Sequence record: OM632664.1
From: Escherichia phage BEU5
Direction: 5' to 3' (one strand)
DNA: 64,000 nucleotides
Shown: positions 10,983-12,562 of the stretch, one piece after another
Layout of the letters: each line of letters opens with the position of its first letter
Position numbering within the stretch: the stretch's first letter is position 1
Notes under the pieces: model-generated
The model's input: the letters and a program-made list of their open reading frames with translations, nothing else
What the model was told of the DNA's origin: nothing
The model's database searches: none
Program-made: the position numbers and the translations under genes

Positions 10983-11591
10983 ATGTCTGAAAAACTATCA
11001 GGTGGTTTTAATAACTACTATCTGGTTCAGGTAACCAACCCTCAACGTATGGAACAGCCTCCATATCAGGCCGAGTGTGAGGATATTATCCAAGCACTAA
11101 ATATGACCTTTGATGAAGGGTGTCTGTTCAAGGCATTGTGGCGTAATGCTGCTGCTCGTTTAGGTAACGGTAAACCAGGTAACAATGCCGTTTATGATGC
11201 AGAGAAGATGGTTCATTATGCTAACCGTATTTTTATTAAAGAATCCGGTGGGCAGAAAAAAGAAGCAGAAGAACCAGTTTCTGAGGCTCTGAAGAAGGGT
11301 GAAGAGATTCATATGTCTCTGTCTGAATTATTCACCCTGTTAACTGGTGAAGCAGCAGAAGGTGAAGTAATGAGCCTTGCTGGTTGGCATACTCACGTAC
11401 CAAACCGTTTGGGTGTTATGCCTATTGCTGTTGCAATGAGCAAAGCAGAACAAATTGATGTAGTACGTGCCGATGGAACGACTATTACTCATGTATTTCC
11501 TCATGAGATTGACTGGTCTGATAAGATTGCCCCCTTTGCTCGAATCACTGCATGGCGTTTCAGTAACCCATCTAAGGTCGCTTCTAAATGA
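10983..11591 (+). CDS. hypothetical protein
   Basis: 202-aa ORF in operon context. Confidence 0.4.
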   Translation: MSEKLSGGFNNYYLVQVTNPQRMEQPPYQAECEDIIQALNMTFDEGCLFKALWRNAAARLGNGKPGNNAVYDAEKMVHYANRIFIKESGGQKKEAEEPVSEALKKGEEIHMSLSELFTLLTGEAAEGEVMSLAGWHTHVPNRLGVMPIAVAMSKAEQIDVVRADGTTITHVFPHEIDWSDKIAPFARITAWRFSNPSKVASK

Positions 11592-12562
11592 AAATCACGA
11601 ACAATCATGACGTGTCCTTGCCATTAGCTGTCTGGCTTTTGCATGACGAGTATGATTACGTGAAGGATAAAAAGTATCTTTCTGTGACTACCTTGCTTAA
11701 GCCAATTAAGCACATTGTCATGAAGCATCGTGTAGACCTTTCTGTAGAAAGTATGGACATCATGGATTTGGTGTCCACTTCTATGGGTACGGGCTTACAT
11801 GATTCTATTGAGAAGGCATGGCATAACGGACACCACAATGCATTACGCAAGTTAGGGTATCCTGAGCGTGTCGTTCAGAATGTTGTCATCAATCCTACCC
11901 CTGAGCAGATTGCATCAAATCCAAACTTAATTCCTGTATGGATAGAACAACGAGCAACTAAAAAGATTGCTGGTTGGACTATTGGGGGCAAGTTCGACAT
12001 CGTTACTGAAGGTCTTCTTCAGGATGTAAAATCCACCTCCACTTACACATGGGTAAAGGGTGGACGTGATGAAGAACATAAACTTCAGGGGTCAATGTAT
12101 CGTTGGTTACATGACGACAAGATTACCGAAGATGTGATTCGTATTAACTACATCTTCACTGACTGGATGAAAGCACTAGCTACATCTCAAGAAAACTACC
12201 CAAAGCACCGTGTGCTGCATAAAGACATTCCATTGATGTCTTATGAAGCGACTGAAGAATGGATTAAAGCCAAGCTGGCTCTCATTGATAAGTACTGGGA
12301 TGCTCCTGAAAACGAGATTCCAGAATGTACTGATGAAGAGTTATGGCGTTCTGACCCAGTGTTTAAATACTTTGCTGACCCAGAGAAGGCAAAGCAACCT
12401 GGTGCTCGTTCTACCAAAAACTTCCCTACTCTCTTTGAGGCTCGGAAGTTCATGGCAGAGAAAGGCAAAGGCACTATTCTTCATGTTCCTGGTGAACCTA
12501 AACGATGCAACTATTGCTCAATTTTTAACATCTGCGAACAAAGAAAGAGATATTTCCCATGA
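11588..12562 (+). CDS. PD-(D/E)XK nuclease with Cas4-like Fe-S cysteine cluster
   Basis: core KFDIV...QDVK resembling D...(D/E)xK; C-terminal CNYCSIFNIC (CxxCx5C) plus upstream Cys, as in Cas4/AddB-type nucleases. Confidence 0.5.
   Translation: MKITNNHDVSLPLAVWLLHDEYDYVKDKKYLSVTTLLKPIKHIVMKHRVDLSVESMDIMDLVSTSMGTGLHDSIEKAWHNGHHNALRKLGYPERVVQNVVINPTPEQIASNPNLIPVWIEQRATKKIAGWTIGGKFDIVTEGLLQDVKSTSTYTWVKGGRDEEHKLQGSMYRWLHDDKITEDVIRINYIFTDWMKALATSQENYPKHRVLHKDIPLMSYEATEEWIKAKLALIDKYWDAPENEIPECTDEELWRSDPVFKYFADPEKAKQPGARSTKNFPTLFEARKFMAEKGKGTILHVPGEPKRCNYCSIFNICEQRKRYFP

Follow-up and report, generated by a model that had tools for sequence, protein, structure and literature searches.

Escherichia phage BEU5 carries the N4 gp42-type exonuclease, a Cas4-like PD-(D/E)XK protein with four C-terminal cysteines, in its replication gene cluster

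In the nucleases Cas4, AddB, Dna2 and Exo5, one cysteine of the metal cluster precedes the nuclease core and the other three follow it with the spacing C-x2-C-x5-C. [quoted passage not shown] In phages, pairs of an exonuclease and a Sak4 protein have been proposed to act as recombination modules (PMC3483164) and, in a Pseudomonas phage, an exonuclease with a Cas4 domain co-purifies with a DUF669/Sak4 DNA-repair system (PMC13687109). The 14-15 genes that make up the core of N4-like phages include a “putative exonuclease (N4 gp42)” (PMC5418858, PMC11934525), and the N4 protein (YP_950520.1) bears the RefSeq name “exonuclease”. The searchable literature yielded genome-annotation papers only, with no biochemical data on gp42. 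A 5'-3' exonuclease induced by N4 and needed for N4 replication in vitro was reportedly purified in the 1980s by Guinta, Rist, Rothman-Denes and colleagues, in papers from 1986; we found no accessible source that assigns this classical activity to gp42.

We analysed a window of 64,000 nucleotides of Escherichia phage BEU5 (OM632664.1), the whole stretch of DNA under study, in which an initial annotation made from the sequence alone had described a Cas4-like PD-(D/E)XK nuclease with an iron-sulfur motif in the replication module. The gene (Table 1) is an uninterrupted open reading frame of 324 codons that opens with the ATG at 11588 and closes with the TGA at 12560-12562. Its DNA is 100% identical to that of Escherichia phage BEU13, an N4-type coliphage, at the same coordinates, and shares 97.4% nucleotide identity with gp42 of coliphage N4. 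The 25 differences from N4 among 975 bases fall into 23 synonymous and 2 non-synonymous codons, the latter producing the substitutions A231T and N242S (2 of the 324 residues), and this ratio indicates that the exonuclease frame is under strong purifying selection. As judged by sequence comparison, the gene is the orthologue of phage N4 gp42. The feature is thus already known, as N4 gp42, PHROG 2139, the RefSeq “exonuclease” and a core gene of Schitoviridae. Its identity with N4 gp42 had gone unrecognised in the initial annotation. In the records of close relatives, the gene, or features under or beside the match, are labelled inconsistently as hypothetical protein, polynucleotide kinase or UvrD/Rep family helicase.

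Table 1. Features of the exonuclease gene of phage BEU5 and of its neighbours, with positions in the window and the basis of each assignment.
Feature	Position	Strand	Basis and properties
gp41, 202 aa, unknown function, upstream	10983..11591	+	PHROG 37456; N4 annotation
gp42-type exonuclease gene	11588..12562	+	ORF list; 324 aa, 37.6 kDa, pI 7.2
PD-(D/E)XK nuclease core, about residues 30-236	11675..12295	+	conservation, AF2 model, Foldseek
Catalytic motifs II and III, F-D137-I-V ... Q-D146-V-K148	11996..12031	+	D137, D146, K148 100% conserved
C-terminal four-cysteine module, residues 245-318	12320..12541	+	conservation, separate fold prediction
gp43, DNA primase, 715 aa, downstream	12559..14706	+	Pfam PriCT_1 and DUF3987; N4 annotation
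gp44, Sak4-like ssDNA annealing protein, presumed exonuclease partner	14765..15520	+	Pfam AAA_24 7.8e-12; PHROG 124 5e-45
gp45, N4-type single-stranded DNA binding protein	15566..16363	+	N4 annotation; tblastn synteny

Profile searches matched the protein over its full length to PHROG 2139 “exonuclease” (E 1e-147, residues 1-323 against positions 2-323 of the 330 in the profile) and more weakly to PHROG 1706 “CRISPR/Cas system associated” (E 1.9e-9). The Pfam model PDDEXK_1 (PF12705, “Cas4-like”) matched residues 106-316 with 20.6 bits (E 4.7e-4), just under its gathering cut-off of 22 bits. The same model was matched at E<=0.01 by 58 of the 146 family members (best 3.7e-7), and we therefore regard the gp42 family as a divergent relative, with the BEU5 protein just below the cut-off. 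By hmmscan the protein had no match to Pfam Cas_Cas4 (PF01930 / DUF83) at E<=1, and Cas_Cas4 was likewise absent from a six-frame search of the N4 genome, in which 8 of 14 control genomes were matched. We also considered that the protein could be Cas4 proper; this was ruled out by the missing PF01930 match, the relocated cysteine described below and the lack of cas1/cas2 or CRISPR neighbours. By its profile matches the protein is Cas4-like and not a member of the Cas4 family. Sequence searches of the PDB with the protein, with a 19-sequence profile and with a 146-sequence profile gave no usable match, so that the link to solved structures is drawn solely from fold comparison.

The family is widespread. 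A tblastn search against 50,697 phage records matched 475 of them, and 474 of these matches cover at least 80% of the protein. Among the matches listed, all but the weakest belong to phages of 66-79 kb with hosts across the Proteobacteria. An exhaustive HMMER search of 1.84 billion cluster representatives gave 2,809 matches at E<=0.001, 360 of them at E<=1e-30. Conservation was assessed in an alignment of 145 sequences comprising the query and 144 full-length representatives of 50%-identity clusters. H71, E120, D137, D146, K148, Q167 and C247 are 100% conserved in this alignment and Y171, C307, C310 and C316 are 99% conserved, as are, at 99-100%, G67, G134, P205, W253 and Q318. Through one weak phage match, vir555, a second and shorter subfamily (about 270-300 aa) was found in phages that are not N4-like. 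It aligns with the gp42 family over the full length in hhalign (probability 100%, E 2.7e-57), retains the H, E, D, D-x-K and Q-x3-Y residues together with all four cysteines, here spaced C-x56-C-x3-C-x5-C, and lacks only a 34-residue insert corresponding to gp42 residues 81-114.

The motifs quoted in the initial annotation, FDIV, QDVK and CNYCSIFNIC, are real and lie at residues 136-139, 145-148 and 307-316, with key residues 99-100% conserved in the 145 sequences; their conservation and the synonymous bias of the changes relative to N4 show that they are not a product of chance. The core displays an N-terminal S32-x-T34, H71 and E75 on a long helix, E120-x-R122, D137, D146-x-K148 and motif IV of the RecB family, Q167-x3-Y171 (Q167 100%, Y171 99%). 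In an AlphaFold2 model built from a 19-sequence alignment (mean pLDDT 84, pTM 0.75), the catalytic D...(D/E)-x-K residues are carried on predicted strands 130-135, 138-140 and 143-148. The top Foldseek match of this model in the PDB was the [4Fe-4S] Cas4 protein SSO0001 (4ic1; E 1e-6, TM 0.63-0.65 target-normalised), followed by RecE (3h4r, 1e-4), human Exo5 (7lwa, 3e-4) and, at E<0.02, RecB/RecC of RecBCD and AdnAB. Against predicted viral structures an N4-like orthologue came first (TM 0.86), and the further matches include phage and archaeal-virus nucleases of the PD-(D/E)XK, Cas4-like and RecE-like types. Based on the predicted fold, D...D-x-K, Q-x3-Y and the histidine that is conserved on its long helix, the protein is a RecB-like PD-(D/E)XK nuclease whose active site is intact. 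From what is known of the RecB nuclease site, H71, D137 and D146 would bind Mg2+ or Mn2+ and K148 would act in hydrolysis. The proposal of a Cas4-like PD-(D/E)XK nuclease thus held, with PHROG 2139, PHROG 1706, PDDEXK_1 and the best fold match, Cas4 SSO0001, all pointing the same way.

The only cysteines in the protein are C247, C307, C310 and C316. The last three belong to CNYCSIFNIC (C307-x2-C310-x5-C316-x-Q318), which ends eight residues short of the C-terminus, and C247 is found past the nuclease core within an invariant C-T-x-E-E-L-W motif. Between this motif and the triad a beta-beta-alpha-beta mini-domain (residues about 255-300) is predicted. Residues 216-324 modelled alone gave a confident fold (pLDDT 85), for which a fold search of the PDB returned no significant match (best E 0.85). 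Neither subfamily has a conserved cysteine in the first 246 residues, where gp42 itself has no cysteine at all. The Cas4/AddB-type hallmark first ascribed to the protein is hence correct for the C-terminal C-x2-C-x5-C triad but not for the remaining ligand, as no cysteine stands N-terminal to the core and the fourth one is C247. We used hhalign to compare the family with the Cas4-domain exonuclease of phage KL1, both with KL1 gp31 alone and with a 121-sequence alignment of the KL1 family. Only the C-terminal cysteine motif could be aligned with confidence, and KL1 gp31, which is placed in a different PHROG, is on these grounds a distant relative. A mapping of the canonical N-terminal cysteine to K38 of “LLKP” was a guess and is not claimed here.

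The four invariant cysteines probably hold an iron-sulfur cluster, and the simplest reading of their positions is that the N-terminal helix gave up the fourth ligand, which a new mini-domain at the C-terminus took over. C247, C307, C310 and C316 would thereby hold a single cluster that staples the C-terminal mini-domain rather than tying the N-terminus to the C-terminus. We tentatively extend this to the whole gp42 family (PHROG 2139, in N4-like and some small phages), which might represent an architectural variant of the iron staple in which the N-terminal cysteine was lost, C247 was recruited and the cluster holds a family-specific, beta-rich mini-domain that resembles no solved structure, instead of clamping the ends of the core; the mini-domain could then dock or sense DNA ends. 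It is rather unlikely, by comparison, that the cysteines serve as ligands of structural zinc or make up some other site without iron and sulfur, the module being a zinc-stabilised DNA- or protein-binding domain on an ordinary RecB-like nuclease. Such a site would agree with a first ligand outside the canonical N-terminal position, with C-x3-C-x5-C in place of C-x2-C-x5-C in the shorter subfamily and with a module that alone matches the fold of no known Fe-S nuclease domain. Nevertheless, Cas4, AddB, Dna2 and Exo5 have the same cluster spacing that gp42 shows, C-x2-C-x5-C at the very C-terminal end of a RecB-like core, a [4Fe-4S] Cas4 leads the fold matches of the whole protein, and the part that hhalign aligns with a canonical phage Cas4-domain exonuclease is exactly the C-terminal cysteine motif.

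The gene is located within the N4 middle-gene replication cluster, ordered helicase gp37, DNA polymerase gp39, gp40, gp41, gp42, gp43, gp44 and gp45. Its start codon shares an ATGA (11588-11591) with the stop of gp41, and its own stop shares another (12559-12562) with the primase ATG; gp41, the exonuclease and the primase are therefore probably translationally coupled. Synteny was examined in 20 related loci drawn from assemblies of bacterial genomes and MAGs, located with the 19-sequence alignment and showing 38-70% exonuclease identity. By tblastn, each of the 16 loci long enough to show it has the order exonuclease, primase, Sak4-like protein, SSB, and this order has also been described in a roseophage (PMC11934525). 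No cas1/cas2 genes or CRISPR array were found beside the gene in N4 or in the 16 related loci. Outside the N4-like phages, the gene just downstream of the shorter-subfamily member codes for an Erf-like annealase in virus vir555 and for an AAA_24/Sak4-like protein in two phage contigs from metagenomes; in two of the four non-N4 contexts examined no recognisable annealase adjoined the gene. The placement in a replication module is confirmed by the surrounding genes, those for DNA polymerase, primase, the Sak4-like annealase and SSB. A role in recombination, with which the initial annotation linked phage Cas4-like proteins in general, gains support, as a putative role, from the conserved order of exonuclease, primase, Sak4-like and SSB genes and from the Erf and AAA_24 neighbours of the non-N4 relatives.

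Taken together, we consider it likely that the protein is a gp42-type, metal-dependent RecB/Cas4-like exonuclease that resects DNA 5'-to-3' for recombination-dependent replication, with the four cysteines holding an Fe-S cluster. The 5'-to-3' direction of digestion is suggested by the similarity to Cas4, RecE, Exo5 and AddB. Resection would leave 3' single-stranded tails for the SSB gp45 to coat and the Sak4-like gp44 to anneal, and this would drive recombination-dependent replication and the formation of concatemers from the terminally redundant linear genome. Resection for recombination is favoured by the conserved linkage to annealase and SSB genes, by the literature on exonuclease and Sak4 pairs and by reports on the N4 SSB and polymerase: the title of Choi et al. 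1995, as it stands in the reference list of PMC3821669, states that replication, recombination and late transcription require the N4 SSB, and the N4 DNA polymerase is devoid of a 5'-3' exonuclease domain (PMC2784036). The primase gene separates the exonuclease gene from that of the annealase, so that the two do not form an immediately adjacent pair, which we counted against the recombination role. A role in degradation of host DNA was also considered; nothing was found in its support, and the genes to which gp42 keeps a conserved linkage serve replication and recombination.

The same polymerase report (PMC2784036) can be read in favour of a nuclease acting mainly at the replication fork, like Dna2 or T7 gp6, to remove RNA primers or 5' flaps in lagging-strand synthesis. 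The gene follows shortly after that for the polymerase and is probably coupled in translation to that for the primase, and Dna2 and Exo5, the latter among the fold matches, are Fe-S PD-(D/E)XK nucleases. We nonetheless regard this as improbable for the main function, as in small phages the neighbours seen beside the shorter relatives are annealases of the Erf or Sak4-like kind and neither a primase nor a polymerase, and the 5'-3' exonuclease of host Pol I would cover primer removal in N4. Replication of N4 is indeed said to depend on this host activity. Primer or flap removal and end resection are possibly both performed by gp42, being compatible and not mutually exclusive roles. The remark that phage Cas4-like proteins can skew CRISPR spacer acquisition is sound as background (Campylobacter phage, as summarised in PMC5704561) but, beyond this precedent and a distant Cas4 similarity, a gp42 that feeds host-derived DNA into spacer acquisition is highly implausible, given a core replication gene kept whatever the CRISPR type of the host (Escherichia, Pseudomonas, Vibrio, Rhizobium, Roseobacter, Acinetobacter), replication genes and no cas genes as neighbours and no Cas4 profile match, in BEU5 or in N4.

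Returning to the recombination exonuclease as the preferred reading, its importance beyond correct annotation is small, as N4-like phages are already recognised to share the gene as part of their core set, and RefSeq, PHROGs and several genome papers label it exonuclease. The annotations of close relatives should be harmonised to “PD-(D/E)XK (Cas4-like) exonuclease”. The Fe-S cluster, the polarity and the partnership with the Sak4-like protein are predictions that can be tested cheaply in a classical model phage. Moreover, the shift of the fourth cysteine and the lack of a fold match for the mini-domain point to a variant mode of linking a RecB-like nuclease with a metal cluster; if this is true, the mini-domain could serve the primase, the Sak4-like protein or SSB, among others, as a platform for docking or for sensing DNA ends.

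Compared with phage N4, the flanking genes and the coupling to gp41 and gp43 are alike and there is no substantive difference in the protein. In BEU13 an HNH cassette splits the DNA polymerase gene, whereas N4 has no such cassette. Cas4 SSO0001 of Sulfolobus solfataricus (PDB 4IC1), a [4Fe-4S] 5'-3' exonuclease, has D...(D/E)xK, QxxxY and the C-terminal C-x2-C-x5-C in common with gp42. In contrast to SSO0001, gp42 is about 120 residues longer, lacks the N-terminal cysteine and cas neighbours, and has its fourth cysteine, C247, in the added C-terminal mini-domain. The iron-staple domains of AddB, Dna2 and Exo5 likewise combine a RecB-like core with a cysteine cluster, and the fold search retrieved both Exo5 and AdnAB. 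Unlike in AddB, Dna2 and Exo5, all four cysteines of gp42 lie past the core; gp42 has no helicase domain.

The phage proteins PA73 ORF030 and KL1 gp31 (PHROG 1990) and gp61 of Pseudomonas phage Phi47 are RecB/Cas4-like exonucleases encoded, like gp42, near genes for a Sak4-like annealase and SSB, and for this group a role in recombination or repair has been proposed or shown (PMC3483164, PMC13687109). KL1 gp31 has the canonical N-terminal cysteine, C73 in “GDECKRKLWY”, as well as “CGYCPAKDIC” near its end, and gp42 lacks the former. In N4 the annealase belongs to the RecA-like Sak4 proteins and not to the Rad52-like ones, with the primase gene standing between it and the exonuclease. The logic is nevertheless that of Lambda Exo/Beta and RecE/RecT, where a PD-(D/E)XK 5'-3' exonuclease supplies single-stranded DNA to an annealase, and RecE is the second-best fold match of gp42. 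Neither Lambda Exo nor RecE has a cysteine cluster, whereas gp42 has four cysteines.

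Bacterial contigs of 123 kb to 2.27 Mb, far above phage genome size, were found to carry the N4-type module of exonuclease (the gp42 relative), primase, Sak4 and SSB. In Moraxella the module is present both on the main chromosome contig and on a second contig of 45.8 kb. Modules on large bacterial contigs could represent integrated or carrier-state N4-like elements or, alternatively, assembly chimeras. The former, if true, would be unexpected in a group regarded as strictly lytic.

Coordinates of features in the window and in related loci (L-numbers)
Feature	Position	Remarks
Family-A DNA polymerase gene	window 7284-10645	broken into two ORFs
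DNA polymerase, first ORF	window 7284/7371-9335
Endonuclease ORF	window 9238-9852	HNH_3 + NUMOD4; between polymerase halves
DNA polymerase, second ORF	window 9815-10645
gp41	window 10983-11591
N4-type module on bacterial contigs		L018, L017, L006, L010, L011, L014, L023
L018	Moraxella sp. ZJ142 ptg000001c, 2,069,040-2,079,981	contig 2.27 Mb
Exonuclease and Erf-like annealase genes	L002 2707-4318	vir555
SocA_Panacea-domain gene	L025 5066-5644	metagenomic phage contig

Among the related loci, the circular 43.8-kb virus vir555 (BK063671.1, Caudoviricetes sp.), whose record gives the archaeal Methanomicrobiales as host, encodes a PHROG 2139 exonuclease of 289 aa that keeps all four cysteines, and the gene overlaps the start of one for an Erf-like annealase. 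Two metagenomic phage contigs with an exonuclease and Sak4-like pair are nearly identical, but only one has an additional gene, encoding a SocA_Panacea (antitoxin-type) domain, downstream of the pair.

The N4 gp42-like exonuclease of roseophage vB_DshP-R7L (gp60) and its gp45-like SSB were both identified by gradient SDS-PAGE of phage proteins and were presented together with structural proteins (PMC11934525). Their appearance there, odd for replication proteins, may reflect contamination or hint at packaging.

The first ~95 residues of gp41, encoded directly upstream of gp42, matched a number of PHROGs, among them PHROG 7063 "3'-phosphatase, 5'-polynucleotide kinase" in its C-terminal part (E 3.6e-20), and judged by these matches form a small domain common to several PHROGs. 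Labels near the gp42 match vary among related records, and those reading "polynucleotide kinase" under or beside it are probably due to this domain, which gp41 shares with PHROG 7063.

Further upstream, an HNH endonuclease ORF breaks the DNA polymerase gene of the window. The polymerase halves directly adjoin each other in six related loci, and in L008 and L021 they are separated by other insertions of ~1.6 kb and ~0.5 kb, respectively. In contrast to the window with its two ORFs, the polymerase of phage N4, gp39, is encoded by one undivided gene of 2580 bp.
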